From assembly GCA_964415935.1 (NCBI GenBank), contig CAYQCH010000001.1, positions 1,144 through 65,143 on the forward strand: a stretch of DNA of 64,000 nt, read 5' to 3'. The notes under the pieces are model-generated. The model was not told where the DNA came from and did no database searches. It saw only the letters and a program-made list of their open reading frames with translations. This DNA comes from an uncultured Gammaproteobacteria bacterium (GTDB taxonomy: Bacteria; Patescibacteriota; Patescibacteriia; VMEV01; CAYQCH01). Positions 18,901 through 46,711 of this stretch are shown in pieces (position 1 is the stretch's first letter; every line of letters begins with the position of its first letter). A program made the position numbers and the translations under genes.

Positions 18901-19860
18901 TTACTGGGCCGCGGCGGTATCGCCCGAAGAGACAGAGAGGCTGTTGGTCATGGTGTCCCAAACCGCCGGGAATCGGAGTGATTTTTCCTGGCCGGCGTCA
19001 TAGTGCATGACAAACATCAGGGCACGTGACCCCGGGCCGCCATCGTCGAATGAAGCAATCACCAGCGTATGATCCTGAGTCTGGACACCGATCCAGCTTG
19101 ATTCATTTCGAAAATTGACATACTGCGTCAAATTGACCGACGGATCCTGCTGCTGCAGCCATTCTGTTACGGAAAGACGGGCCTCATTGTCGTATACCAT
19201 GATACGAAATGATTCGCTGCCCTGGTCAGGCCGGACAATAAACTCGCGTCCATCCGCGGTGCTGCGCGTGGCCGTCCAGGCGAGCGGCACGAGCAACTGG
19301 TAGCCCAAGCTCTCATTACGCGCAATTTTGATTTGCGGCGACACCTCAAGCAACGCGCGCGGCGTGGCTGGGTCATACAAGTTGCGCAACTCCACGCCAT
19401 CCAAAAAGCTATCCTGGTCCGTATCAGGCACGGACGCGCTGGTAAGGAACAGCTGCTCCTCAATGTCCGTCAAGCTGTCCTGGTCAGTATCAACCGCCAC
19501 TGGCAAGACGCCGCTGATGACGGCGGGTAACTGCACGCGCGGCGTGGCCACCGGCTGCTCTTGTACTGGCTGCGGCGCGGCTGGTTGCGCCGGCTGCTGA
19601 GGCTGTTGCTGCGCCGGCTGTTCGATAACCGGAGTTTGCTCGATCGGGGCTTGCGCAACAGGCGTTGTCTGGGGCGCGCGCGTAAAAAAGAGCACCAGAA
19701 CAATGATGACTAATAACGCCACGATGCCCAAAACAATCGCCAATATGGCAGTTGAGGAAAGCTTCTTTTTTTCCTTTGGCACATACGCATCAGGCATGAC
19801 AATCAGGCGGCCTGACAATGCCGATGACGGTGTTTCCTGTGGGGACATCTGGGTGGCCAT
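18901..19860 (-). CDS. Membrane-anchored protein with Pro/Gln-rich linker, TSP3-like Ca-binding repeats and a C-terminal unknown domain
   Basis: Single TM (ILAIVLGIVALLVIIVLVLFF), then a (QP)n linker. Repeats DTDQDSLTD and DTDQDSFLDGVE match the D-x-D-x-D-G/S motif. No family match for the C-terminal ~170 aa. Confidence 0.5.
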   Translation of the reverse strand: MATQMSPQETPSSALSGRLIVMPDAYVPKEKKKLSSTAILAIVLGIVALLVIIVLVLFFTRAPQTTPVAQAPIEQTPVIEQPAQQQPQQPAQPAAPQPVQEQPVATPRVQLPAVISGVLPVAVDTDQDSLTDIEEQLFLTSASVPDTDQDSFLDGVELRNLYDPATPRALLEVSPQIKIARNESLGYQLLVPLAWTATRSTADGREFIVRPDQGSESFRIMVYDNEARLSVTEWLQQQDPSVNLTQYVNFRNESSWIGVQTQDHTLVIASFDDGGPGSRALMFVMHYDAGQEKSLRFPAVWDTMTNSLSVSSGDTAAAQ

Positions 19861-19863
19861 AGG

Positions 19864-20544
19864 TTATGGATTGGTTGGGGCGGCGGGAGGCGCGTCCTGC
19901 GGCTGAGTTTCTTGTTGCCCCAGTTGCTCCTCTTCTGCTCCCGGCAACGTCAAAAGCTTCGCACCGACGGCATTCGGATCATATCCGGAGCGCACTTCCA
20001 TGCCATCGGGGTAGCCGTCATTATCGGAATCCGGATCCAACGGGTCGGTGTTCCACACGCGGATTTCGTCGTAATCCGTGAGGCCGTCATCATCTGAATC
20101 GACAAGCGTCGGGTTGGTACGGTTTTCAGCTTCTTCTTCATCGGAAAGACCATCGCGGTCCGTATCCACCGGCAGTTGCGTTTCAGACGCAGGAGTTTCC
20201 GTCAGAGGGACAACCGGCAATGCCTGGGTGTCCGCCGTTTGCGTCGTCGGCAACTGCGTTACTGGCTGTTGCAGCTGGTTTGCCGCGGGTGCAGGAGTTT
20301 GCCGGCTCAGATAGATGTACACCAGCGCTACGGCAATGACAACAAAACCTAACACCGCGATAACGGCAATGATGATAAGCGTTTTACTGGGCCCGGACGC
20401 CACGACGTCCTCTACAGCAGATGGCGATGGCGGCGAAGACTGGCCAGATTGATTCGGCAGCGAAGGACGAACCAGCTGCGAGGGGGCGGCATCTTGCTCC
20501 GCGCCTTCAAAAATATCTTCCGGTTCTTTTGTGTCTTCAAACAT
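19864..20544 (-). CDS. Membrane-anchored protein with three thrombospondin type-3-like Ca-binding repeats (paralog of the preceding gene)
   Basis: Single TM (LIIIAVIAVLGFVVIAVALVYIYL). Repeats DTDRDGLSDEEE, DSDDDGLTDYDE and DPDSDNDGYPDGME. Pro/Gln/Thr-rich linker and C-terminus. Confidence 0.5.
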   Translation of the reverse strand: MFEDTKEPEDIFEGAEQDAAPSQLVRPSLPNQSGQSSPPSPSAVEDVVASGPSKTLIIIAVIAVLGFVVIAVALVYIYLSRQTPAPAANQLQQPVTQLPTTQTADTQALPVVPLTETPASETQLPVDTDRDGLSDEEEAENRTNPTLVDSDDDGLTDYDEIRVWNTDPLDPDSDNDGYPDGMEVRSGYDPNAVGAKLLTLPGAEEEQLGQQETQPQDAPPAAPTNP

Positions 20545-20553
20545 ACGACAAGG

Positions 20554-21165
20554 TTAAATGGTAGGTTCAGGCAATGCCTCTGGATTTGCAAAGACTTCAT
20601 ACTGATCCAGCAAATCATTGCTATTGCGATCTACATAGAGATCTGACCGCTTTTCAGCCACATGCGCCGCGCATTCTTCGCTCAAATTCTGTATAAAAAT
20701 ATCAGCACATACCGAAGCGGCAATACGCCCTTGTACGGCCTGAAACGACAAGTGCCGCATGATGCATGTTTGGGACTGCGGTCCGGACTGGAGCTGCGCG
20801 CACAAACCCTGTTGTTCAGGGCTGAGCATCGCGACCGTTTGAGCCCACGCTTGCGGATTCGGGGGCAAAGCTACGGCGCCCGGAGCCGACACTTGTTGCG
20901 GCATATTAGAATATAGGTTCAGGCCATCCAGCAATGCGTTCAGCCGCTCTTCAGAAAGACGCGAAACATAGTTAATGGGCTTGAACTGTCGTTTTGTCTG
21001 CTCATCCACGATGTCGGAATAGGTATACAACCCGCTTGCGCGGTCAATCAACAACACCCGTTCTTCGGCATTATACAACTGCTGGCGTCTGGCAAGCGTG
21101 TAAACAAGCCAACCTGATGCCGCAATAGCGAGCAGCACGACGACAAGAATAATTTTCTTATTCAT
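20554..21165 (-). CDS. Hypothetical N-terminally anchored exported protein (203 aa) with 4 Cys
   Basis: N-terminal signal-anchor MNKKIILVVVLLAIAASGWLV. No recognisable domain. Co-directional with a 5-nt gap to the neighbouring gene. Confidence 0.4.
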   Translation of the reverse strand: MNKKIILVVVLLAIAASGWLVYTLARRQQLYNAEERVLLIDRASGLYTYSDIVDEQTKRQFKPINYVSRLSEERLNALLDGLNLYSNMPQQVSAPGAVALPPNPQAWAQTVAMLSPEQQGLCAQLQSGPQSQTCIMRHLSFQAVQGRIAASVCADIFIQNLSEECAAHVAEKRSDLYVDRNSNDLLDQYEVFANPEALPEPTI

Positions 21166-21170
21166 ATTTC

Positions 21171-23801
21171 TTAGAGCGCCTGCAAGAAGTCACACACGCG
21201 ATTATTATCAACATCTACGCATCCTAACACATAGGTCGTATTGCTTGTCGTCGAGGTTTGACCCTGGCTTGGGTCAGTCTTGGTGCTATTTCCTAGCCAC
21301 ACCATAAATCCTTGTCCTTGCTGGAAGTTCACGCGGTAGGTGTCTTGCGGCAAGAGATTGCCGCTGGGATCGCGACGGTCACGCAAGTGTTCGAGGACGA
21401 CAATGCCGCCGTTTGTGTCGATTTCCTTGGCATTCGGAAGGTAGATCCTGCCGCGGGCATACCCGCCGTTCGCCCAGGTTTCATTCGCGACCACTTCGTC
21501 GATAACCGCATCGCTGAGATTCAGTCGATGCATGGCGTTGTCATTGCCGCAATGTTCGCCATGCTTTGGAATAAAGTACGTCTGATACCTTACTTCCTGT
21601 CCGTTATACCGCCCCATCATGAAATGACCGCCGCACCCGCCATGAAACCAGGTTACAGAATCCGTCATCAACGGATATGGCAGTTTATAGTGCGAGGCGT
21701 TATACGGCCATCCCCACGGTGAACCAAACGACTGGCCATTGCGCGTAAAACTTTGTGAAGATGCGCCCGTGCAAGTCATTTGCAATTCCTCGGAAGTGGT
21801 ATCTGCCATGCTCCAACCCCAGGCACCCTTGTTCGCCACACAAAATGATTTGCGAGTATCGGCAACCACAGCATAGCTTGCTGTAACTTTGTTATTGGCC
21901 ACCTGACAGCTCTGGCACAAGCCCGGTGTTTTGGCATCATCGCATTTTTCAGGACCGTTCACCGTGCCGTCACCACAGAAACCAACCTGCCTGCATGCGT
22001 CATACGGCCCCCAGGTACAAAGAGGGTTTTGGGGCGTTGCTTCCTGAACACAGCGACGCAGTTTGTAAAAGTATGTTGGTTCAGGCTCGCAAGGAACGTC
22101 CTGCGTCTGGTTATCGCATGCCTCAAACGGGATATTGCGCGCTCCATCACCACAATACGGGCCACGCACGACATCGATTTTGCAGGAATTGGTGCAGTAG
22201 TTACAGGTTTTTCCGTACGCAGGCACGCAACGCTGTCCGTTCTTGTTGGACTCATCGCATTCTTCTCCCTGGTCAGCCTGAACGATGCCATCACCGCAGC
22301 GGGGGCCAAGCGCTTCCTGCACTTTGCAAACGCTGCTGCAGTAGGTGCAACGCTGCGCATATGCCGCCTGGCATTGCACGCCGTTTTGCTCAGATTCATC
22401 GCACGTCTCCAACCCGTTTATGATGCCGTCCCCGCAGGTTTCAATGGGCTGGCAATCAGTCCAAGGGGCGTATCTGCATGTATTGCGACAAACACGCACA
22501 CGTTGCGTGCGGTAGCCATTGATAAACGTGGAACACAACTGCGTTTCGTTATTCCCGTCGCATTCTTCGTTGAGGCCCTGCTCATTGGGGGTCTGCACCG
22601 TCCCGTCGCCGCAATACGCTACGGAGCGGACTGAACGGCAGTCTGCGGCGCATTCCTGGAACTCATTCACGCCTGATTGGCCGTCGCAAGCTTCGGTTCC
22701 TTCCGTGACATTATTACCGCAGGTTTGAAAATCGCATACGTCGCCGACGCCATCGCCGTCAAGATCTGTCTGATCTGAATTTCCGATCGTCGGACAGTTA
22801 TCTAAATTTCCGCAAACGCCATCGTTGTCCTGGTCGTTGGTGGGGTCATTTGGACAAGTGTCACAGGCGTTTCCCACGCCGTCACTGTCGGAATCAGACT
22901 GATCGGCATTGCTCACCGCCGGACAGTTGTCCACGGCGGCCCCCACCCCGTCCCCGTCAAAATCAGCGGAGTCGGCCGCGCTGAAGTTAAAGCATTGCCC
23001 GGCAGTCTGGTCGGAAAACGATTGCGTGCGCCAGCTGCCTGGTCCCTGATATTCAAAATTTGTAAACAAGTTGTAAGACAACCCGTCGGGATTGACTCGG
23101 TATGCATAGGCATATGCCTCGGGGGGACAGGAAAACTGCCTGTCTTCAACGGACCAGCAGGTCTTGGTATCATACGGGTCTTTGCAACCGATGAATTCAT
23201 TGCGCGGGTCAACGGGCACAGCAACACCGAGCAAATTCCCAAGTGTGGCCTGCCAGGACGGCCATGTGCTGTAGGTAGTGTTGGGTAAATAACTCCCCGC
23301 TTCAAAAACCGGATACTTGCCGGTCTTGACCCGGTACGACTCCAGATATCCCTGAATGTTGTTCAGGTCAGCGGCACGATGCATGTCGCGACGGATCTGC
23401 TCGCGCGTGGTCCTGTCAGTAATGTTCGTATTCAGCCGGAACTGCCTGAGAAATTCATTAAATACGGCCTGAACGGACTCGTCAGCCGTTTCGCTGTAAG
23501 AAATAAGATAAATATTGCTGTACAAGGTGCGAGAGTTGGCGTCGTAATTTGTTGCAGCCACATATACGGAGCGGCCGTCACGAACAGCAGGATATCCGTC
23601 GACTTCAAGCGCCGCGGGATTCCCAGGATTTGGCACGTTCGCGCGATACCATGTCAACGGAGATAGCCTGTCAGGGTTGGGAATAATACGTATGCCAATG
23701 GCCTGCCCGCGCCCAGTGTCTTGCGCCCGCGCAGGAAAACCGACTGCCGAGGCGGCAAACAGGCAGAAAACAATTGCTATGTAATATAGTGACTTTCTCA
23801 T
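21171..23801 (-). CDS. Large secreted cysteine-rich protein: TSP3-type repeats plus at least six Myxococcus-type cysteine-rich repeats (CGDG...EECD)
   Basis: Signal peptide from Met25 (MRKSLYYIAIVFCLFAASAVGFPARAQ). Repeats DSDSDGVGNACDTCPNDPTNDQDNDGVCGNLDNCP...DLDGDGVGDVCD. Six CGDG(x)n(E/T)CD units (e.g. CGDGIVQADQGEECDESNKNG). Cys-rich C-terminal domain. Confidence 0.6.
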   Translation of the reverse strand: MRKSLYYIAIVFCLFAASAVGFPARAQDTGRGQAIGIRIIPNPDRLSPLTWYRANVPNPGNPAALEVDGYPAVRDGRSVYVAATNYDANSRTLYSNIYLISYSETADESVQAVFNEFLRQFRLNTNITDRTTREQIRRDMHRAADLNNIQGYLESYRVKTGKYPVFEAGSYLPNTTYSTWPSWQATLGNLLGVAVPVDPRNEFIGCKDPYDTKTCWSVEDRQFSCPPEAYAYAYRVNPDGLSYNLFTNFEYQGPGSWRTQSFSDQTAGQCFNFSAADSADFDGDGVGAAVDNCPAVSNADQSDSDSDGVGNACDTCPNDPTNDQDNDGVCGNLDNCPTIGNSDQTDLDGDGVGDVCDFQTCGNNVTEGTEACDGQSGVNEFQECAADCRSVRSVAYCGDGTVQTPNEQGLNEECDGNNETQLCSTFINGYRTQRVRVCRNTCRYAPWTDCQPIETCGDGIINGLETCDESEQNGVQCQAAYAQRCTYCSSVCKVQEALGPRCGDGIVQADQGEECDESNKNGQRCVPAYGKTCNYCTNSCKIDVVRGPYCGDGARNIPFEACDNQTQDVPCEPEPTYFYKLRRCVQEATPQNPLCTWGPYDACRQVGFCGDGTVNGPEKCDDAKTPGLCQSCQVANNKVTASYAVVADTRKSFCVANKGAWGWSMADTTSEELQMTCTGASSQSFTRNGQSFGSPWGWPYNASHYKLPYPLMTDSVTWFHGGCGGHFMMGRYNGQEVRYQTYFIPKHGEHCGNDNAMHRLNLSDAVIDEVVANETWANGGYARGRIYLPNAKEIDTNGGIVVLEHLRDRRDPSGNLLPQDTYRVNFQQGQGFMVWLGNSTKTDPSQGQTSTTSNTTYVLGCVDVDNNRVCDFLQAL

Positions 23802-23869
23802 AAGGACACGGGGCGATTCATTGAAATGATACCAATTTCCCAGCCTGCGGTCTCTGTGTATAAAAGACA

Positions 23870-26800
23870 TCATTCAATGATGAACAGTGATTCCTTTAAC
23901 ACGCCCCCGACATTCTGGCCGGTAACGGGGCTGGACAGGGGCGGCAAGTCGTCATCAAACCCCGGCTCGCCGGCATCTCGGCAATAGAAAATGTCGTAAT
24001 TGAATGCCGTGTCGACGTACGGGAAGGACGTGATATCCGGCCACGGATTTTCACACAAGAAGGTTACGACATCCAGTGTGCGTGAAATGGTGCCCTGAGA
24101 CGGGGCCTGGGCGCGCGCCGTTACCGTCACCGTCGCTTCGCCATTCTGTGGATTCGGCGTCATTTCCACCTGCTCCCCCGTTGCAGGATCAAGCGTCAAA
24201 ATGGGGTCGCCTTCCACAGTCCAGGTAAAGTCAGCCGGGACAATGAATCCCGCTCGGTCGCGTCCGGTAGCCAGATAGGCATGCTGGTTCCCTTCTTTAG
24301 TCGCGTTTACGTCTCCCGGGCAGTCGTTTCGAGCGGCGCAGAATGCAACATCCAGGCGGCCGGGCTCACCGGGAGGCGTGATAAGGACATCCACGTAGTC
24401 GAGCTTGCATTCCGCTTTGCCTGTCCTGAACGTCCTGACATCTTCCCCGCTGACCGCAACGTTAAACGAGTTGCGTACTCCTTCGGGAACGTTGTCATCG
24501 AGGTTCAGGTCCCCCACCGTCCGAACGCGGTACTGGCGGTCATCCTGGAGTTTTTGCTTCGGATATACGCGGGCGCTGCTGCCGACGTCCGTATTTGAAA
24601 CGCTGACGCTGGACTCAACGCGGCACCAGTTTTCTCCTTGCGCCTGCGTGGCGGGAATCACCCAGGACAGCGCGCGGGAGGCATAGTATTTTGCTTTTGG
24701 CCACCATGCCGTAGGCGCCACGGAAGGGCATGGGATGCCGCCATTATTGATTTCCAAAATGATGCCGCTGACCAAAGACGCCTGGTTCATGGGCTGGTCA
24801 AACTCTAGCTCTATACCCAGCGTCGTACAGACGGCTTCGGCACCGTTTCGCGGATTGCTACCGATAATCCCAGGGCGCGGATAGCAGCATGAATCGGATC
24901 CGACGCCATGCGACTGGACCGTAGCCGGAGATGGACATTGATTGTCGGTTTGAAAACCGCATTGCACCGTAAAATCTCCTTCACCATTAACCCCCTGGGT
25001 GGAGGCGCGCACCTTTGTGGATCCTTCGCCGCGGCTGGTGGTAATTTGCGCCCAGTCCTTGAAATTCTCTAAAGGCAATACATCTTGCTGGGTAACGGAA
25101 GCAACCTTTGGAACGGATACGCCCCAGACCCAGTCCATGGTATCGCCGCGCAGAATCTGACCATACTGGTTACATGCGTCAGCGGGAGCTACCGGCAACG
25201 CCTGGTAGTTGAATTCTTCCAATATGAGGCTGGATATGGCTGTAGGCGGATCAATAAGCACGTCTTCAATCTGACACTGATTGGGGTCATTTCTGGTGCT
25301 GAATAGCCAGGAATAGCTGTCAATGGTGCCATCCCCGTCGGCGTCGTAGTTTAATCCCGAAAGCGGCAGCCCGCTTGCGCTGCGCATGCCCTTGAGGACG
25401 ACGCGGTACTTGGTGGCGACTTTAAACGCGCTGATATTAGGCAGGAAGTGCAGGGTAAAGCTTGTATTGTTATAGGTCAGGCTGGTTACGCCGATACTGG
25501 CGGTATTGGCGCGCGCGCAGGCCGCGTCTTTACATTCGTGTAATTCCACGTTGGCGTTAGCCGTAACCGAAGCTTCCTGCATTTCTTGATTGAATTTCGC
25601 GCCCAACGCGGCGTTGATGCAAGCGCTTGAGCAATTCGGCCATTTATCCACCACCAAAGGCGGCTCCAAAGAAATACGCAACTGACCGCTGTCTTCCTTG
25701 CTGAACTCCGGAATGGACGCAATGATATCAACCGCCGGGCCAGGATCGGTGGCACCTTTCGCCGTGGCGCGATTTTGGTATGTCCTGGACGTTTCCAGAA
25801 CAGCTTTTGATGTATCCGCGCTCAGCCAGCCCCATGTATAGGCGCTGCCGTCGAGGATATTGCAATTCAAGGCAGTGGCAACGCCCGTATACGCTTGCGT
25901 CGCACCAACTTTTTTCAACGTGGCCGTGGCTGGTGTCACTTCGACATGATCAACAGCACAGGCCCCTTCTCCCGACTGCGTCTTAAACGTCCATCGATAC
26001 GGGTTTTCCATCCTGTTGCCGTTTTCCGCTTCCACGGTATTGGCAATCGTTACCTGGTACCAGGTGTCAGGAACAAACGCCGGTTGAGGCTGGGCGATAA
26101 AGCCTTCGCCCGGCTGATTGGAATTGATGATGACAAAATTACTGAGGCTCACCGTTGTTTGGCAGCTACCGCCATCAAAGGAAGGGCCGGTGTTGCAGCG
26201 GCGCAGCTCAACTGTTCCCGCGTTCAGCGTGGCGTCCTTCATATCATGGGTAAAGCGGGCGGAAACAGCCGCGTTCAAACAAGCATCAACGGTGTCCTTA
26301 AATGGTGACGGGCTTTGCGTGTTGTTTTTGCACGTCGCTTGCTCGATGACGCGCGGGATGCCGCCCAGGTCGTCGCCCGTGCCGAATGTCCAGGAATACG
26401 TACACAACGGCAGGGCCTCGGAACAGGTTCCGGCGGCCTGGCATGCTCCAGAAGAGCAGCATTCAAAGCCTGTTCCGCACGTGTCCGGGCTGCATTGTCC
26501 AACACGGAAGTTCAACCCGTTGCTTAGTTGTCCCGTGGAGGCAATGACTTGTACCAATCCCGTCTGGGCCGTGGGCGGCACGGCTACGCGGATCTGCCCG
26601 TCGTTCCAGGAAACAACGTCCGAAATATCAACGCGCGAATGGAAGCGTACGCCCCCCTTGTTTACGCCGAATCCCTCGCCATACAACACGGTTTCAATGC
26701 CTAGCGGGCCGTTGTCAGGTTCCATGGCGCACAGTCCGGGCAACCGGCCGCCGGCGGTAACGGTAAAGCTGGCCGGATTGCTGCGACCAGCATCTGTTTC

Positions 26801-28864
26801 TAAAAATACTTCGTAAATACCTGGATCCAGGCGCGGGACCCGGAACGCGCGCTGCTCGCCTTTGCGGAAGAAGCGCAAACAGCTGTCCGGCAGTCTGGTG
26901 TCGGCCAGCGTGACTTCACCTGTGCGCGGGTTTAAAAACTTCACAAGCGGCGTGCGCGACAAATTTTCGCCGATGATGGAGAAAATTTGTCCGACCGGGC
27001 CGCGATCCGGAGAAACGGAATCCAGGCGCGGCAACGTAGGCGATGAGGTCACAGACATGAACACCGGATTGCTGGTCAACGGACCTACCTGCACGCGCAC
27101 GGGCACGACACCCTCCGGCAGGGATGGCACGACCACATCGGAAATCTGTTCGTCTGCCCAGGTGCCGATGCGTCCGGCCCTGGCTTGTCCAAAGGAAACA
27201 TCGCCTAGCGTGGCTCCAAAGCCGTTGCCGCGCAGCGTAACCGGCTCTCCAACTTGCTGGCTGCCCGGTTCAACCGCGCATAAACCCGGGCGCCGCGTGT
27301 CGTTGATTTCAAAAATCACGCGTCCACCCTTGTCGTCATCGGTGGTGTCATACAACCCCTCTGCCGTGGTCAGACGAAGCGCGCCTGTGCGAGCGTTGGC
27401 AGGCACCTGCAGCACGACCTGCGTGTTGCTCCAGGCCCCGACGCATGGAAACGCGTCAACCGTTGCATCGTCGTCGTCCGCGCTCAAGCCAAGAAACACA
27501 AGCGTACCGGTTTCTGTTCCGAAATTACGTCCGCGGACGGTAACAAAATTTCCAGGCGCGCCATTGGCCTCAATCACTTCTTCAATCACCGGATAGTCAC
27601 GGCAGAATCCGCCGACACAGAGGCCGGAGGCGCACTGCGAATTTTCCGTACACGCGGCGCCCTGGCAGAGACGGCAGGTCGGGCCGCCGCAATCGACGCC
27701 TTCTTCATCCTCATTCTGCTGGCCGTCAAAACAATAGGCGGGCAAAATTTCCACGGATATTTCCGGGCTCAGCCCGGTCTGTCCCGCTAAATCAACGGCC
27801 GCGGCTGTAATGGCGTGACGGCTCTTTAGCGCAAGATCGATGGTAAGCCAGGTCGCGCTGCCGCGAAATTCAGTAACGACATCGGGACCGGAAGCCGGCG
27901 CCACGCCCACGGACGATCCATCAACAAAAAATTCCAAAAAGGCCACGGCATAGTCGTCCAATGCCAGGGCTTCCAACAACACGGAGCTGTTCTGCCCCAC
28001 CGCCGCGTCATTATATGGCAAAGTCATGCGAGCCGTGGGAGCGATGGTATCGACAGCCTCACCGGTCACAAATCCAAATGCGCACTGCGAAGTTGGCGAC
28101 GGACAACGGAAGGCATCGCCATCGGCGCTGGTCAAAGCGGAACTTATAACCGCTTCATAGGCCACATTCGCGTCAAAGCAGCGGACTTGTTCATTCGGCG
28201 AGGGACAAGCCTGGTTGGGAACGAATATGGCCCGGCTTCCCTTTACCGACCACGATCCGGCTACAGGAGCTGTTTCACCGGTCTTGCGGACATAGGCATT
28301 CTGCTCAATACCGGTCTGCGTGATGTCCTGGTTAAACAGCAGCTGCACCTGGACGTTGCGGATGGGCACCACGCCGGAAGGCAAGGCATCAATGAGCAAC
28401 AACGCGTCGCGCGTGTCCAGGCCGCTTTGTCCGACCGGCTGCGACAAAGGCGCCTGCTGGCTGGCTCGGCGCTGCTGGCTGCGAATGACAACGAAGCTGA
28501 TAAGCAGCAGTACCGCACAGAGCACGAATACAATGCCAAACACCAGCGCCAGGCGGCGGCCGCGCTCCAAAACAAGGATGTCATTGTTCTGGCTGCCATT
28601 TCGCCAAAGCACGATGCCGTAACTCATGCCTGCCAGGCTGAGAATGAGGCCGACGAATGCGGTTAACTGCAATACGCGCCATACCGTACTCGGCTGAGCT
28701 GCTTCCACTGTGGTTTGCGCCACATTTTGCGACGACGCGCCTTCCGTGACCTGAACGGCGTCCTGGGCCAGAGCCGGAATGGCCACAGCAAAGACTGCAC
28801 CCCAGGCAAACAAAGCGGACACAAGCATGGATCGAAAACAGCGCATACTCAAGCTACGGACCAA
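23870..28864 (-). CDS. Giant surface protein (1664 aa): signal peptide plus TrbC/VirB2-like two-helix membrane hairpin, then Ig-like (Big), Cys-knot and IPT/TIG repeat arrays
   Basis: N-terminus: signal peptide (...AIPALAQ), then hydrophobic helix, W-R-N-G-S-Q-N-N loop, hydrophobic helix. Multiple IPT/TIG-like units (PRLDSVSPDRGPVGQIFSIIGENL, LCAVEPGSQQVGEPVTLRGNGFG). Has D..AP-type Big starts. No LPXTG or C-terminal TM. Overlaps or abuts the upstream gene. Confidence 0.6.
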   Translation of the reverse strand: MVRSLSMRCFRSMLVSALFAWGAVFAVAIPALAQDAVQVTEGASSQNVAQTTVEAAQPSTVWRVLQLTAFVGLILSLAGMSYGIVLWRNGSQNNDILVLERGRRLALVFGIVFVLCAVLLLISFVVIRSQQRRASQQAPLSQPVGQSGLDTRDALLLIDALPSGVVPIRNVQVQLLFNQDITQTGIEQNAYVRKTGETAPVAGSWSVKGSRAIFVPNQACPSPNEQVRCFDANVAYEAVISSALTSADGDAFRCPSPTSQCAFGFVTGEAVDTIAPTARMTLPYNDAAVGQNSSVLLEALALDDYAVAFLEFFVDGSSVGVAPASGPDVVTEFRGSATWLTIDLALKSRHAITAAAVDLAGQTGLSPEISVEILPAYCFDGQQNEDEEGVDCGGPTCRLCQGAACTENSQCASGLCVGGFCRDYPVIEEVIEANGAPGNFVTVRGRNFGTETGTLVFLGLSADDDDATVDAFPCVGAWSNTQVVLQVPANARTGALRLTTAEGLYDTTDDDKGGRVIFEINDTRRPGLCAVEPGSQQVGEPVTLRGNGFGATLGDVSFGQARAGRIGTWADEQISDVVVPSLPEGVVPVRVQVGPLTSNPVFMSVTSSPTLPRLDSVSPDRGPVGQIFSIIGENLSRTPLVKFLNPRTGEVTLADTRLPDSCLRFFRKGEQRAFRVPRLDPGIYEVFLETDAGRSNPASFTVTAGGRLPGLCAMEPDNGPLGIETVLYGEGFGVNKGGVRFHSRVDISDVVSWNDGQIRVAVPPTAQTGLVQVIASTGQLSNGLNFRVGQCSPDTCGTGFECCSSGACQAAGTCSEALPLCTYSWTFGTGDDLGGIPRVIEQATCKNNTQSPSPFKDTVDACLNAAVSARFTHDMKDATLNAGTVELRRCNTGPSFDGGSCQTTVSLSNFVIINSNQPGEGFIAQPQPAFVPDTWYQVTIANTVEAENGNRMENPYRWTFKTQSGEGACAVDHVEVTPATATLKKVGATQAYTGVATALNCNILDGSAYTWGWLSADTSKAVLETSRTYQNRATAKGATDPGPAVDIIASIPEFSKEDSGQLRISLEPPLVVDKWPNCSSACINAALGAKFNQEMQEASVTANANVELHECKDAACARANTASIGVTSLTYNNTSFTLHFLPNISAFKVATKYRVVLKGMRSASGLPLSGLNYDADGDGTIDSYSWLFSTRNDPNQCQIEDVLIDPPTAISSLILEEFNYQALPVAPADACNQYGQILRGDTMDWVWGVSVPKVASVTQQDVLPLENFKDWAQITTSRGEGSTKVRASTQGVNGEGDFTVQCGFQTDNQCPSPATVQSHGVGSDSCCYPRPGIIGSNPRNGAEAVCTTLGIELEFDQPMNQASLVSGIILEINNGGIPCPSVAPTAWWPKAKYYASRALSWVIPATQAQGENWCRVESSVSVSNTDVGSSARVYPKQKLQDDRQYRVRTVGDLNLDDNVPEGVRNSFNVAVSGEDVRTFRTGKAECKLDYVDVLITPPGEPGRLDVAFCAARNDCPGDVNATKEGNQHAYLATGRDRAGFIVPADFTWTVEGDPILTLDPATGEQVEMTPNPQNGEATVTVTARAQAPSQGTISRTLDVVTFLCENPWPDITSFPYVDTAFNYDIFYCRDAGEPGFDDDLPPLSSPVTGQNVGGVLKESLFIIE

Positions 28865-30470
28865 CGCAAGGCTGGTAGCAATTCTGATAAATGTCTTTTA
28901 CGTTTGATGACACAACGGGCGTGTATGTCGCATTCTCATCCAACCCTGCGTGCACCATCTGCACGACCGTCTGATTTTCTTCCACGGACGAAGAAATCTG
29001 ATAATCAAGCCCGGGAACCTGCACGGTCTGGCGGTTGATGGTCTTTAACCACAGGGGTTTATCGAAGGTAACGGTCAAGCGGCTGTCGCGCGGGACCAGC
29101 GTGGCGTATGGCTGCGGCGATACCGCGCTCACGACGGGCGCGCGCAGGTCTATCTGGTCAGTGGTTTGAAAACTCCAGGCGAAGTCGTCGGCCGGGCTGC
29201 CTTGCGCTGCGCCGTCGACATTGCCATCAAAGGAGTTGCCTGACGCATCTACGACGCCGTCAAACGGAAAGACGGCCACCGGCGGTTGCGCGCTGACCGT
29301 GGCAGCGCGGACGCGTGCCGTAAACTTGGCGCTGGGCGGCAAGCAAAACACGTCCTGGCCGCAGGAATTGGTGCCACATAAATCATTGGTGACGAATTCG
29401 GCCGTGCGGTACTGGTTGCTGATGGTAAACCGGCCTGCCACCACTTCCCCGTTCTGTCCGCGCACGCTCAGGTTGTTAAATCCGCGCGCGGTATCGCCGC
29501 TGACGGCCAAGGGGTTCATGGCTTCGCTGAACGTCACCTGCACGATAATGTTGCGAGCATACGTCTGATCCGGTTGCGGGATAACGCTGACCACGCGCGG
29601 CGGCTCCAGATCAACAAACGTCCCCACCTCGAATTCCCAGGTATAGGCGCCGAAATTACCAAACGCCCCCCTGCCGGCCGCGGTGGAAATGCCCTCTCCC
29701 AGCGTTACGCGATACAGGGTGTTTTGTTCGGCGCTGCCGAGCAAGTCAATGGGGTCAATGACCAGGATGCGGGCGTCGTCGCTGACTGCCGCGCGCGCCG
29801 GAACAAACGGACCGGACTGCGGGTCATCGCTGGCCTTGGAGATAAAAATATTTTGGCCGTTAATCTCGTCGTCGGCCGGATCTTCCGTGCCCTTGTTATT
29901 AATGAGTGAGTCAACCAGCATGGGCTCAACGAAACTGACCATGATGTTGGTGTTGCGCGCAAGATTGGTCTGGCCGCGGTCGGGATAGTGCGATTCGATT
30001 ACGCCCAAAGGAAATCCGCCGCCCCCGCCCAAAAACCCGCCTGTGCCGCGGCGGCCAAAGGATGACGGTTGTGTCTCCGGACCGCCCACCAGGCGGTTGA
30101 GGACGAACGTTACAATGCCGAAAGAAGACAAGATGATGATCAAACCAATCAGGCCGTTGCGCAACAGCGTCTTGGCCGTATTGACCTGGTCATCATTGCC
30201 CGCCGCGGTCATCCAAAGATATCCCGCATATAAAAGCAGCCCCAGGGCGACAATTCCTAAAAAGCCCAGGGCCACTTGTATGACGCGCGCGATAATGACG
30301 CGCGGGTCGCTTCCGCTCAATCCAACCGATTCCGCTTGCTCCAGCCCGACGTCTACCGTCTGGGCAAAAGCCGGTTCATGCAAAACCAGGGATGAAACAA
30401 GCAACGCGGCGATGATGAATCCCGCGAAAATGATGATGCGTTTCAACCCCGAAAGCATGGGAACTTGCAT
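28854..30470 (-). CDS. Surface protein (538 aa) with TrbC/VirB2 pilin-like N-terminal anchor followed by SbsA-type Ig-like (Big_5) domains
   Basis: N-terminus: signal peptide (..HEPAFAQ), then QVALGFLGIVALGLLLYAGYLWMTAAGNDDQVNTAKTLLRNGLIGLIIILSSFGIVTFV, two hydrophobic helices with a short polar loop as in VirB2/TrbC. Gly-rich linker. Two Ig-like modules begin PRVVSVIPQPDQTYA and RAPVVSAVSPQPYATL. Confidence 0.55.
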   Translation of the reverse strand: MQVPMLSGLKRIIIFAGFIIAALLVSSLVLHEPAFAQTVDVGLEQAESVGLSGSDPRVIIARVIQVALGFLGIVALGLLLYAGYLWMTAAGNDDQVNTAKTLLRNGLIGLIIILSSFGIVTFVLNRLVGGPETQPSSFGRRGTGGFLGGGGGFPLGVIESHYPDRGQTNLARNTNIMVSFVEPMLVDSLINNKGTEDPADDEINGQNIFISKASDDPQSGPFVPARAAVSDDARILVIDPIDLLGSAEQNTLYRVTLGEGISTAAGRGAFGNFGAYTWEFEVGTFVDLEPPRVVSVIPQPDQTYARNIIVQVTFSEAMNPLAVSGDTARGFNNLSVRGQNGEVVAGRFTISNQYRTAEFVTNDLCGTNSCGQDVFCLPPSAKFTARVRAATVSAQPPVAVFPFDGVVDASGNSFDGNVDGAAQGSPADDFAWSFQTTDQIDLRAPVVSAVSPQPYATLVPRDSRLTVTFDKPLWLKTINRQTVQVPGLDYQISSSVEENQTVVQMVHAGLDENATYTPVVSSNVKDIYQNCYQPCVGP

Positions 30471-30500: not shown

Positions 30501-30752
30501 TTAGCGTCGGCGATCTCGTCTTTGTTCTTCAGGGAGCTGTCCGGTTTTTCGGAGCCATTCCCGTTTTTCTACCACTTCAAGGCGCCGCAATGCGCGCTCT
30601 TTCTGTCGGCGCTTGTTTTGCGTCCGTTCGTGGAAGCGGATTTTTCTGGCTTGAAAAATCTTACCGCTTTCCAGCACGCGCTTGTTAAAGCGTCGCAGCA
30701 AGGAGTCAAAACGCTCGCCTTTCTTCTTTTTTACGTCAACTACAGCTGACAT
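30501..30752 (-). CDS. rpsU: 30S ribosomal protein S21
   Basis: 83-aa basic protein MSAVVDVKKKKGERFDSLLRRFNKRV... with an Arg/Lys-rich C-terminus, as in S21. Confidence 0.8.
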   Translation of the reverse strand: MSAVVDVKKKKGERFDSLLRRFNKRVLESGKIFQARKIRFHERTQNKRRQKERALRRLEVVEKREWLRKTGQLPEEQRRDRRR

Positions 30753-30933
30753 GCTGTCACCGTCCTTTCAGTTGTATAAATAATGAGGGCAGTTTTTTGC
30801 TCGCTGCCGAATGCCAGCGTACCAAAAAACAGGCTGGTGCGTCAACTACCGGATGATGCGATACTTTGATAACAACGTTTTAAAAAACCGGCTGTTCATG
30901 AACCTACTTTCCAAACATATTTTAGCAAAAGAA

Positions 30934-30990
30934 AAGAGTCCGGAGAACATTCTTGCATCTTGCGACGCAAGCATCTCACGGACTCTGTTC
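30934..30990 (-). terminator. Nested-hairpin terminator with U-tract downstream of orphan paralog A
   Basis: Minus strand reads cagagtccg-[inner hairpin cttgcgtcgcaag]-ccggactct, followed by tttcttttg. Confidence 0.5.
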
Positions 30991-31053
30991 GGTGCGAAGA
31001 ACCAAGGATCAAGAATCCAAAAGTTCCAAGTTACCAAAGACCAAGTTCCTAGT

Positions 31054-31896
31054 TCACTCCCCGACAGGGCCAGGAACGGCGAAGTTCCTATCGTGAAAGT
31101 CGCCGTTGTCGTCGCTGAGCCGCACCCGGCGCTCACTCTGAAAGAAGATGAGCCAGGGAACGGCGGACCAGCGGCCTTCATAGAAGCACTGATAGCCGGG
31201 CAGCCACACAAACGGTACGGACTCGCCGTCCATGGCTTCCACCCACCACCTGTGGATGGCCGCCGCAGCCAGAATGCTGGCATGCGGCGACTGTGCGTTG
31301 CGCACGTCGCGCGGCCGGATGCCGTTCTGCTGGTCCCAGTTTGCGCCCAGGTCGATGGTCTCCCACCTCAGGCACCTGCCCGGATGGATGATGCCATCAA
31401 GCAGCTTGGCCAGGGCCTGGGCGCTCTTGAGCCGATCCCAGCGCCAGGTATTGGCATGACGCGCCTCGACGGCGCGCCACAGACCATCGAAAGTCGTCTG
31501 GACCGTATCCAGATACGGAACCAAGGTCACAGCAGCCAAATTGTGCAGCTGGACCGTCGGCCAGGCCGTCGGAACTGGCAGCGACGCGAAGTCGTCGGCC
31601 GTGAAGCCCCAGCCCAGGCGCTGGTTGAGTTCCCAGACCACCCTCACCTGCTTAACAATGGACTCGAACAAGGCATTGCTGGGTGACGGAAGGTGCGGGC
31701 TGCACTCCGCCATCGCCGTCTCCTGATCCGTGTTCAGGGCCAGGATGGCCGGAAGGATGCCGGCCGCCGCGGTGAGCAGCAGCTGCCGCTCTTGAATTGC
31801 GCCAGCGCGGGTTCGCGCCCTCAGCAGGCGCGCGTCATCCTCAGGGGCGCCGCTTACGGACGCCCCGCGTTGCAAAGCGCGAACCGACCAGTCCAT
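31054..31896 (-). CDS. Hypothetical protein, orphan family member A (paralog of 62889..63593)
   Basis: 280-aa ORF. Shares blocks with the second copy: DWSVRAL/DWVVRAAL, LGWGFTADDFASLPVP/FGWGLADKDFLRLPAP, LRWETIDLGA/MRWEVIDLGA, SPHASILAAAAIH/SPHAGILAAMALH, and a C-terminal AVP. Has its own promoter region and terminator. Confidence 0.5.
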   Translation of the reverse strand: MDWSVRALQRGASVSGAPEDDARLLRARTRAGAIQERQLLLTAAAGILPAILALNTDQETAMAECSPHLPSPSNALFESIVKQVRVVWELNQRLGWGFTADDFASLPVPTAWPTVQLHNLAAVTLVPYLDTVQTTFDGLWRAVEARHANTWRWDRLKSAQALAKLLDGIIHPGRCLRWETIDLGANWDQQNGIRPRDVRNAQSPHASILAAAAIHRWWVEAMDGESVPFVWLPGYQCFYEGRWSAVPWLIFFQSERRVRLSDDNGDFHDRNFAVPGPVGE

Positions 31897-33794: not shown

Positions 33795-34430
33795 TTATTC
33801 TGTCTGTTCTAAAGAAGAAGGAACGTTGTACATGGGCGGAGAGAAAACGGTTACCTTGTTAAACGGCCAGCCGCGGATCCATGTCTTGCCGACAATATAC
33901 TGGCGCGGTAACGGACCAAAGCTGCGCGAATCTAGGCTGAAGCTGCGGTTGTCGCCGAGGACGAAATATTCGTCAGGTTGCAATGTGACAACCATTTCAC
34001 CCACCGTTGTTGTCCCTTCGTCCAAATACGGCTCCTCTACCTGCTCGCCGTTGATGTATACATTGCTGCCGGTTACCTGCACGGTCTCACCCGGCAGGCC
34101 GATGATGCGCTTGATGAAGTACTGTTTGGGATCGCGGGGGTAGCGGAAAACAATGATGTCGCCGCGCACCGGTTCTTTGAACCGATAACTGATCTCGTCA
34201 ATGACCAGGTACTCATGGTCAAAAAACGTCGGCTCCATGGACGCACCCTTGACATAAAACGGTTTGATGAAGAAATACCGGACCGGGATTATAATGACCA
34301 GGGCGACGATGACGACCTGCAACAACTCAACAAAAAATTCGCGCACCGATGTGGGTTGCGCGGCTTGCTCCTGCTCGGCAAAAAAATCCATGTGCTTGGA
34401 TTCCTGCGGCGTTTTGTTTTCTTCTGGCAT
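33795..34430 (-). CDS. lepB: Signal peptidase I
   Basis: S26 motifs GASMEPTF (catalytic Ser box) and GDNRSFSLDSR, with an N-terminal TM segment. Confidence 0.85.
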   Translation of the reverse strand: MPEENKTPQESKHMDFFAEQEQAAQPTSVREFFVELLQVVIVALVIIIPVRYFFIKPFYVKGASMEPTFFDHEYLVIDEISYRFKEPVRGDIIVFRYPRDPKQYFIKRIIGLPGETVQVTGSNVYINGEQVEEPYLDEGTTTVGEMVVTLQPDEYFVLGDNRSFSLDSRSFGPLPRQYIVGKTWIRGWPFNKVTVFSPPMYNVPSSLEQTE

Positions 34431-46703: not shown

Positions 46704-46711
46704 TTTTGCCT

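Follow-up and report, generated by a model that had tools for sequence, protein, structure and literature searches.

Two tandem genes, here called pA and pB, in a 64,000-nucleotide stretch of contig CAYQCH010000001.1 (assembly GCA_964415935.1; hereafter the window) encode large immunoglobulin (Ig)-like surface proteins of an uncultured, ultra-small bacterium of the Patescibacteria class ABY1. Both proteins carry, between a predicted signal peptide and the ectodomain, a two-helix hairpin of the Pfam family PF18895 (T4SS_pilin) or, in pB, a diverged relative of it. The hairpins of pA and pB evolve in concert within genomes (loci L005-L084), and the gene pair is a vertically conserved core module that keeps the same position on the chromosome at the majority of related loci that were compared. 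We lean toward the interpretation that pA and pB belong to a surface, adhesion, or envelope complex that is held in the membrane by their hairpins, through which they would also associate laterally in a specific manner.

Results

Architecture of pA and pB

A first-pass annotation of the window had described two tandem ORFs, each starting with a signal peptide that ends in A-x-A-Q and is followed by two hydrophobic helices. Both ORFs were recovered on the minus strand with the same boundaries (Table 1), and the N-terminal pattern was found as AFA-Q in pA and ALA-Q in pB by hydropathy analysis and, for pA, in an AlphaFold2 model. Kyte-Doolittle scans of the full-length proteins gave three hydrophobic segments in pA (residues 3-36, 56-91, and 101-130) and three in pB (9-34, 60-87, and 96-132), with no transmembrane (TM) segment beyond these N-terminal stretches in pA or past the region of residue 132 in pB. 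Both proteins thereby show the signal peptide, two TM helices, and short loop of the PF18895 pattern. The A-Q pair at the putative cleavage site of pA is nearly invariant across 65 homologues, and the signal peptide is probably removed there. Neither an LPxT[GAS] motif nor a C-terminal hydrophobic segment was detected in pA or pB, as the first-pass annotation had also noted, so neither protein resembles an LPXTG-type sortase substrate.

The pA model, built on the 65 homologues, had a predicted local distance difference test score (pLDDT) of 85.9 and comprises a signal-peptide helix (residues 7-29), a helical hairpin (56-88 and 93-128), a disordered linker (130-152), and a beta-rich ectodomain. 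Pfam assigned three Big_5 domains to pA (E 2e-26) and four Big_5, two TIG, and one Big_7 domain to pB, in agreement with the Ig-like and IPT/TIG domains expected from the initial reading; as candidates for the Cys-knot domains proposed alongside them, pB has two Cys-rich modules (residues 378-421 and 791-821) without a Pfam family match. Comparison of the full pA model with known structures using Foldseek returned the tandem bacterial Ig domains of LdtMt2, the S-layer protein SbsC, and titin (E ~1e-8). We rejected these matches as a guide to a specific function of pA, as they are generic to tandem Ig domains.

Homologues of pA formed 112 clusters, nearly all of them precomputed as Big_5 plus PF18895. 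NCBI names for some of these proteins are 'pilin' or 'Ig-like domain-containing protein', and the named homologues come from Uhrbacteria, Falkowbacteria, Buchananbacteria, and the 'Patescibacteria group'. The pB gene overlaps the pA stop codon by 11 nt; in-frame ATGs at codons 7 and 13 offer alternative starts, the latter being used in the NCBI model (P0113, 1652 aa), and orthologues of pB are 48-100% identical to it.

Relationship of the two hairpins

The isolated pA hairpin scored above the gathering cutoff of PF18895 (26.6 bits) with 30.5 bits (E 3.9e-7), and full-length pA fell just under it with 25.2 bits over residues 59-123. Orthologues of pA at 98% and 88% identity carry precomputed PF18895 assignments. 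For pB, a Pfam scan returned nothing for this family at E<=0.1, and a hidden Markov model (HMM) of the pA-family module, run against all ORFs of the window, matched pA as the sole hit and returned nothing for pB at E<=10. A single-sequence BLASTP comparison of the two N termini was marginal (E 0.025). Because direct HMM searches find pA but not pB, the relationship was established from profile-profile comparison and from orthologues. With hhalign, a profile of nine pB orthologues aligned in register with the pA-family profile at a score of 51.0 (probability 94%, E 8.5e-8), compared with 14.3 for the reversed profile and 11.2±1.8 (maximum 14.9) for 30 column shuffles.

The orthologues agree with this alignment. 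Distant pB homologues of 1071-2663 aa have PF18895 at the N terminus, as does, by precomputed assignment, a pB orthologue of 3294 aa from Uhrbacteria. Among 62 genomes of other species with a readable syntenic giant gene, the canonical PF18895 module was present in 60 of the giants at E values of 1e-31 to 1e-38. A signal peptide followed by two TM segments was found in 60 of the 62 pB-like and 78 of 82 pA-like proteins, and 61 of the 62 syntenic giants have no C-terminal TM segment. The profile match, the distant homologues, and the 60 canonical orthologues show that the pB hairpin of the window is a diverged copy of the module, and we conclude from these sequence comparisons that the two hairpins are homologous, as the first-pass annotation had supposed from the two N termini. 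The diverged form is limited to the small clade to which the window belongs; its loop, WRNGSQNNDILxLERGRR, is kept in orthologues down to 48% overall identity and is specific to that clade.

Conservation and concerted evolution of the hairpins

Across the 65 pA homologues, the fraction of sequences sharing the majority residue was highest in the hairpin (0.62), intermediate in the ectodomain (0.54), and lowest in the signal peptide (0.31). Within the hairpin Gly91 is invariant, and Tyr81, Gly83, Ala99, and Lys100 are nearly so. These values and the invariant positions argue for sequence-specific constraint on the hairpin. Within a genome, pA and pB share a mean identity of 60% over the hairpin (n=60), compared with 47-50% for orthologues and for cross-genome pairs, and in a typical genome the paralogue in the same genome is closer than the orthologues from ∼80% of the other genomes. 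Simple divergence after an ancient duplication therefore cannot account for the pattern. Identity between pA and pB at third codon positions averaged 0.46 and reached 0.72-0.79 in three genomes (L031, L063, and L084), which indicates episodic gene conversion. The clade of the window has escaped this concerted evolution, and its pB hairpin is strongly diverged.

Comparison with VirB2/TrbC and other pilins

The first-pass annotation had likened the hairpins to TrbC/VirB2 conjugative pilins and had suggested that the proteins could be filament-displayed adhesins or a previously uncharacterised surface layer. The hairpin domain itself is a catalogued Pfam family with at least 73,000 cluster representatives, and some homologues already bear the name 'pilin' at NCBI. 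The likening to pilins was upheld in part: pA belongs to PF18895 and there is a weak in-register profile match to genuine pilins, whereas pB misses PF18895 and searches by fold and against the PDB recovered no pilin. The TrbC/VirB2 family PF04956 was matched weakly by 10 of 26 PF18895-family members (best E 7.9e-5) and was not matched by pA itself in Pfam; FixQ and similar small TM families were matched about as often as TrbC. When the module profile was aligned to a profile of eight VirB2/TrbC pilins of the MPF-T type (MPF, mating-pair formation) from plasmids, the two were in register from end to end with a score of 25.6 (hhalign probability 28%, E 6e-4), compared with 13.6 for the reversed profile and 10.5±1.9 for shuffles, placing the real score ∼8 standard deviations (SD) above the shuffles. 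The similarity of the hairpin to VirB2/TrbC is thus in register and weak, as judged from the profiles. Residues 60-125 of pA also aligned to positions 13-78 of the 80-position NCBIfam model NF045849, the Mbov_0395 family of pilin-like conjugal transfer proteins from Mycoplasma integrative and conjugative elements (ICEs), with 31.6 bits (E 1e-7), below the cutoff of 40. A hairpin HMM searched against all PDB sequences gave no pilin, the top match being the TM hairpin of COX2 (E 0.11), and fold searches with the hairpin model lacked discriminating power, giving generic helical hairpins and neither VirB2 nor TraA.

The module profile matched 73,114 proteins among 1.84 billion representatives, 22,678 of them at E<=1e-10. 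The top 150 matches comprised pilin-sized proteins of 122-290 aa, proteins of 487-3481 aa with the hairpin fused at the N terminus, and polyproteins with 2-17 tandem hairpins; because the fusions form one of these groups, attachment to a large ectodomain is a common use of the module. At 538 and 1664 aa, pA and pB exceed the size of a small mature pilin (∼70-120 aa). Stand-alone proteins of pilin size (122-180 aa) scored as well against the profile as the pA orthologues did. The tandem forms in the representative library (P0143-P0149, P0188, P0208, and P0229) include a 1775-aa protein (P0148) with 17 matched PF18895 stretches. The existence of these 'poly-pilin' chains implies lateral packing of hairpins within the membrane, which may bear on self-association of the module. 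One small stand-alone pilin from the same search lies on a 1.2-kb contig with uninformative context.

The pA-pB locus

The window is ordinary chromosome that encodes EF-Tu, EF-G, ATP synthase, DnaG, RpoD, FtsA, and FtsZ, among others. The genes from rpsU to ybeY (S21, pA, pB, pC, p203, p226, p319, and YbeY; Table 1) are spaced by -11 to +30 nt, which suggests one transcription unit; in a scan for consensus promoters and terminators the counts in the cluster were at shuffle level. The order LytR-CpsA-Psr, signal peptidase I (SPase I), HisRS, S21, pA, pB, further genes, a TSP3 protein, a ∼320-aa protein, YbeY, FtsA, and FtsZ recurs at the four loci inspected, which come from close relatives, a Uhrbacteria genome (1.07-Mb contig), and a 'Parcubacteria' genome (0.77-Mb scaffold). 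A scan of GTDB representative genomes found the same order in most of 80 species-level loci, with S21 adjacent to pA in 63 and the pA-pB pair in 62, and relatives of pA in at least 449 species genomes.

Table 1. Features of the pA-pB locus, with positions counted from the first letter of the window
Feature	Position	Strand	Description	Evidence or remark
rpsU (S21)	30501..30752	(-)	Ribosomal protein gene, 30 nt upstream of pA	Pfam Ribosomal_S21
pA	28854..30470	(-)	538 aa, ATG start; signal peptide, PF18895 hairpin, Gly-rich linker, three Big_5	
pA signal peptide	30360..30470	(-)	aa 1-37, ...PAFA-QT (predicted)	Hydropathy segment 3-36; model helix 7-29
pA two-helix hairpin	30087..30305	(-)	aa 56-128, PF18895 T4SS_pilin module, loop 89-92 with invariant G91	
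pA linker	30006..30086	(-)	aa 129-155, flexible, Gly-rich, GGPETQPSSFGRRGTGGFLGGGGGFPLG	pLDDT <50 for residues 130-152
pA ectodomain	28857..30005	(-)	aa 156-538, tandem Ig-like (Big_5)	Pfam and Foldseek
pB	23870..28864	(-)	1664 aa, TTG start; signal peptide, diverged hairpin, Big_5/Big_7/TIG/Cys-rich ectodomain	
pB signal peptide	28763..28864	(-)	aa 1-34, ...PALA-QD (predicted)	Hydropathy segment 9-34; AQ motif kept in orthologues
pB two-helix hairpin	28484..28699	(-)	aa 56-127, diverged PF18895 module	Profile-profile match and orthologues
pB ectodomain	23873..28483	(-)	aa 128-1664, Big_7, Cys-rich modules 378-421 and 791-821, 2 TIG, 4 Big_5	
pC	21171..23873	(-)	900 aa, secreted (signal peptide only), TSP type-3 Ca-binding and Cys-rich acidic repeats	
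p203	20554..21165	(-)	N-terminal single-pass TM 1-26	Syntenic in close relatives
p226	19864..20544	(-)	Single-pass, TM 46-83, TSP3_bac Ca-binding repeats	Pfam, E 5e-14
p319	18901..19860	(-)	Single-pass, TM 32-68, Pro/Gln-rich spacer and DTDxD repeats	

The pC gene overlaps the pB stop codon by 4 nt, and its product matched TSP_3 in Pfam and the MtsC-like and myxo_disulf_rpt models in NCBIfam. A C-terminal third homologous to pC is contained in 35 of 41 pB-like giants of at least 2500 aa (2500-3481 aa) and in none of 25 shorter ones, from which it follows that pB and pC are one protein that has been split or two that have been fused elsewhere. In most other ABY1 species (loci L012-L084) the two correspond to a single protein of 2500-3481 aa. 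In the clade of the window the gene is split, the two parts overlapping by the 4 nt noted above, and pC is equipped with a separate signal peptide. The p203 protein matched no family in Pfam or NCBIfam. Both p226 and p319 contain TSP3-like DxDxD repeats; p226 comes after the giant gene in those loci that are long enough to tell, p319 is the last conserved member before YbeY, and the order p226-p319-YbeY was seen in at least 15 loci. An NCBIfam match of p319 to IcmG/DotF was discarded as spurious, since it falls in Pro/Gln-rich sequence of low complexity and reaches 24 bits (E 2e-5) where the cutoff is 200, and a weak match to GltJ in the TM segment and Pro/Gln-rich spacer is probably compositional; p319 is otherwise without an assigned family.

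No gene of a VirB4-, VirB6-, or VirB11-type family was found among the 44 window ORFs scanned against Pfam (most, not all, of those of at least 150 aa), in line with the first-pass annotation, and neither these ORFs nor the 10-kb flanks of related loci gave virB3, virB4, or virB6 neighbours, so the locus does not form part of a T4SS cluster. Beyond the window, four related genomes with the module, all of class ABY1, appear in Table S1 of PMC12102498, and VirB4 is recorded for three of them, which are reasonably complete; the fourth, a 619-kb assembly, is listed as 'No'. The ABY1 T4SS loci lie near comF, recG, and radA, away from the pA-pB locus.

Several other features of the neighborhood were recorded. 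SPase I (33795-34430, minus strand) lies three genes upstream of pA and is fixed in nearly all loci; its proximity could be coincidence or could reflect a functional link to the processing of AxA-Q substrates. A 280-aa ORF between HisRS and S21 (31054-31896, minus strand) had no family match, is overlapped on the other strand by a 291-aa ORF (30811-31686, plus strand), and has a homologue at the same place in one other locus (L076), as a lineage-variable insertion in a fixed order. A cell-division link through FtsA and FtsZ was considered and rejected, given that the association is one of synteny and that YbeY and intergenic gaps of 71-90 nt lie between. Farther away, an 874-aa ORF (46706-49330, plus strand), located where the AT skew is unusually high (0.15-0.25), is acidic, Ala/Glu/Gln-rich, and coiled-coil-like with a basic Pro/Arg tail; it has no Pfam family and no TM segment and is not a VirB4-like ATPase. 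Many of the metagenome-assembled genome records that contain the module (loci L005-L082) are titled 'uncultured Gammaproteobacteria bacterium', and one module contig each comes from a bin labelled Chlamydiae (L026) and one labelled Candidatus Methylomirabilis (L062). Such titles are placeholders or belong to misbinned contigs and thus provide no evidence of the module outside the Patescibacteria.

Discussion

The PF18895 family and its VirB2-like nature are already known from Pfam, from NCBI naming, and from three recent papers. Pilins of this family are widespread in Patescibacteria, where they were found near virB4 in 1135 of 1948 assemblies (PMC12102498), and their genes occur in arrays of 2-11 as part of an MPF-FATA-like T4SS (PMC12102498). 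In Southlakia epibionticum both this secretion system and its pilins are essential (PMC10633639; PMC12857230). The papers on the patescibacterial T4SS describe the pilins as small, and no adhesins were detected (PMC12102498). In methanogen-parasitising Paceibacterales, genes for PF18895 proteins rank with the most strongly expressed of those that lack a known function, and the proteins have been interpreted as related to adhesion (PMC10936435). In the searchable literature we found no description of the PF18895 module fused to giant Ig-like ectodomains, no report of a gene pair conserved at one housekeeping locus throughout ABY1, and no report of concerted evolution of the pA and pB hairpins.

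In the model that we favor, pA and pB would be two hairpin-bearing members of an inherited ABY1 cell-surface module, S21-pA-pB-pC-p203-p226-p319-YbeY. Each protein would be exported by Sec and probably cut after AxA by signal peptidase I. The two antiparallel helices would anchor it in the cytoplasmic membrane so that both ends lie outside and the short conserved loop in the cytoplasm, a topology that we deduce from the signal peptide, the two TM segments, and the disulfide-rich, Ig-like C-terminal part. The hairpin would be the same PF18895 module as in the small VirB2-like pilins of the patescibacterial MPF-FATA-type T4SS, with the pB copy of the window lineage having apparently diverged beyond HMM recognition. 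From it, the Gly-rich linker would lead to a rod-like ectodomain (∼380 aa in pA and ∼1540 aa in pB) whose Ig-like, TIG, and Cys-rich domains may project through the wall. The pC protein would be the detached C-terminal third of an ancestral or alternative giant of 3000-3500 aa. It could join pA, pB, and the two membrane proteins with TSP3 repeats, p226 and p319, in a Ca2+-dependent complex that serves adhesion or forms part of the surface or envelope; the occurrence of Ca-binding TSP3 repeats in pC, p226, and p319 favors such an assembly. Because its sequence is conserved and the two copies are kept alike within a genome, the hairpin is likely to be more than a passive anchor: the pA and pB hairpins may associate laterally with each other and possibly also with the small-pilin pool and membrane components of the T4SS.

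Several points weigh against this model. The partnership of pC, p226, and p319 with pA and pB is suggested by synteny, and the localisation, complex formation, and Ca2+ dependence of pA, pB, and pC are predictions from sequence. VirB2-like extraction and polymerisation would likewise predict a strongly conserved hairpin that evolves in concert, and the concerted evolution could stem in part from mechanical gene conversion of tandem genes and not from selection. The small pilins score against the module profile on a par with pA orthologues, so the fused hairpins do not constitute a distinct 'anchor-only' subtype, and VirB4 is encoded elsewhere in three of the four related ABY1 genomes noted above.

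A rival proposal is that pA and pB are modular VirB2-type pilins whose hairpins are extracted by the patescibacterial T4SS and polymerised into an adhesin-bearing pilus, with VirB4, VirB6/PrgH, and PrgI encoded elsewhere and with pA and pB either polymerising by themselves or serving as minor or tip subunits in a pilus of small PF18895 pilins. We consider it unlikely. The bona fide PF18895 hairpin, which resembles VirB2/TrbC and the Mycoplasma ICE family weakly but in register and fits the module profile as well as the small pilins do, speaks for it, as do the high conservation and coevolution of the pA and pB hairpins and the flexible Gly-rich linker after helix 2. F-type pili expose both ends of the subunit chain on the outside and display short C-terminal fusions, and in solved pili of the VirB2 type both ends likewise face outward. 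The association of PF18895 pilins with virB4, their essentiality in Southlakia, and the VirB4 genes of related ABY1 genomes would fit as well (PMC12102498; PMC10633639). On the other side, no T4SS genes adjoin the locus in the window or at the related loci inspected, structure searches gave no support at the level of the fold, and an ectodomain of 40-170 kDa on each subunit would be sterically hard to accommodate in a VirB2-type helical lattice. It would also be hard for a single lattice to contain both pA and the pB of the window clade, as the pilin HMM recognizes the hairpin of the first and not of the second. On balance, a membrane-anchored complex is more likely than a polymerised pilus. 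We would likewise give a low probability to the fullest form of the proposal, in which the PF18895 hairpin serves for polymerisation, making pA and pB the first modular pilins of the VirB2 type, and a chromosomal ABY1 T4SS extracts the hairpins from the membrane to build a pilus in a monoderm. If that were true, all or some of the pilus subunits would each bear a 40-170-kDa Ig-like adhesin, and a conjugation-type pilus would be the main organelle of host attachment, which would explain why the T4SS and pilins are essential in epibiotic Patescibacteria.

It is quite improbable, in our judgment, that pA, pB, and pC are instead subunits of a proteinaceous S-layer, the outer layer of candidate phyla radiation (CPR) cells, with the hairpin as tether and TSP3-bound Ca2+ driving the lattice. 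A core syntenic module that is probably highly expressed downstream of rpsU, in an envelope and division neighborhood (LytR-CpsA-Psr, SPase I, FtsA, FtsZ, and an M23 peptidase) and with Ca-binding repeats in three cluster proteins, would be in keeping with such a layer. The appearance of SbsC among the top Foldseek matches to the Ig-like rods points the same way, but LdtMt2 and titin score equally in this generic tandem-Ig match. Pfam and NCBIfam gave no S-layer homology (SLH) or other known anchoring or lattice domain, and a two-fold difference in ectodomain length among species (1460-3481 aa) is unusual for a lattice subunit. The hairpin could also be a convenient two-TM anchor that is functionally unrelated to T4SS pilins, the name 'T4SS_pilin' being misleading, and the generic results of the fold searches, the COX2 hairpin as the sole yield from the PDB, the FixQ-like matches on a par with those to TrbC, and the absence of T4SS genes nearby are all compatible with that. 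A passive anchor should, however, evolve like the signal peptide, and the hairpin is twice as conserved (0.62 compared with 0.31), has the invariant Gly91, and evolves in concert between pA and pB. Those properties, the end-to-end similarity to VirB2/TrbC ∼8 SD above shuffles, and the match to the Mycoplasma ICE pilin-like family make this explanation very doubtful.

Among known systems, the small patescibacterial VirB2-like pilins of PF18895, such as those of the essential Southlakia epibionticum array (Quinonero-Coronel 2025; Wang 2023), have the same signal peptide and two-helix module, whereas pA and pB carry it as the first ∼130 aa before Ig-like ectodomains, are encoded in a housekeeping neighborhood and not next to virB4, and include a pB copy below HMM detection. 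The VirB2/TrbC pilins of MPF-T systems (PF04956) likewise have a cleavable signal peptide ending in AxA-Q, a two-helix hairpin, and a short loop; pA and pB are 5-15 times larger, have no adjacent virB3, virB4, or virB6, and belong to a monoderm. The Mbov_0395 family (NF045849) also serves an MPF-FATA-type conjugation system of a wall-less or monoderm host, but the Mycoplasma proteins are small and ICE-encoded. With giant Ig-like adhesins (SiiE, LapA-type RTX proteins, and LPXTG MSCRAMMs) pA and pB share long Ig-like/TIG rods and Ca2+-binding repeats in the system; in place of a type I secretion system retention module, RTX repeats, or LPxTG they have the N-terminal pilin-type hairpin. A conceptual parallel is offered by modular type IV pilins such as PilB and PilC of Streptococcus sanguinis, in which a pilin module is fused to a vWA or lectin module, so that an N-terminal polymerisation or anchor module carries a large adhesive one. 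Those proteins differ in having a class III signal peptide and a single N-terminal helix and in belonging to type IV pili and not to a T4SS, and polymerisation has been shown for them, whereas pA and pB are known here from their sequences.

The Patescibacteria are a huge, mostly uncultured branch whose members live attached to other cells, and little is understood of how their surface is made or how they stay attached to their hosts. VirB2-like pilins are the sole feature that sets the patescibacterial T4SS apart from the Gram-positive type, and they are essential in the only species tested. The practical value of the present results is limited, as they come from computation and the domain family is already catalogued. 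The fusion of the hairpin to large ectodomains in pA and pB, their fixed locus, and the concerted evolution of their hairpins nevertheless provide concrete candidates for the attachment or envelope apparatus of ABY1, and they pose the question of whether the VirB2-type hairpin is a general device for surface display and anchoring or whether these bacteria carry adhesin-coated pili of the conjugative type.

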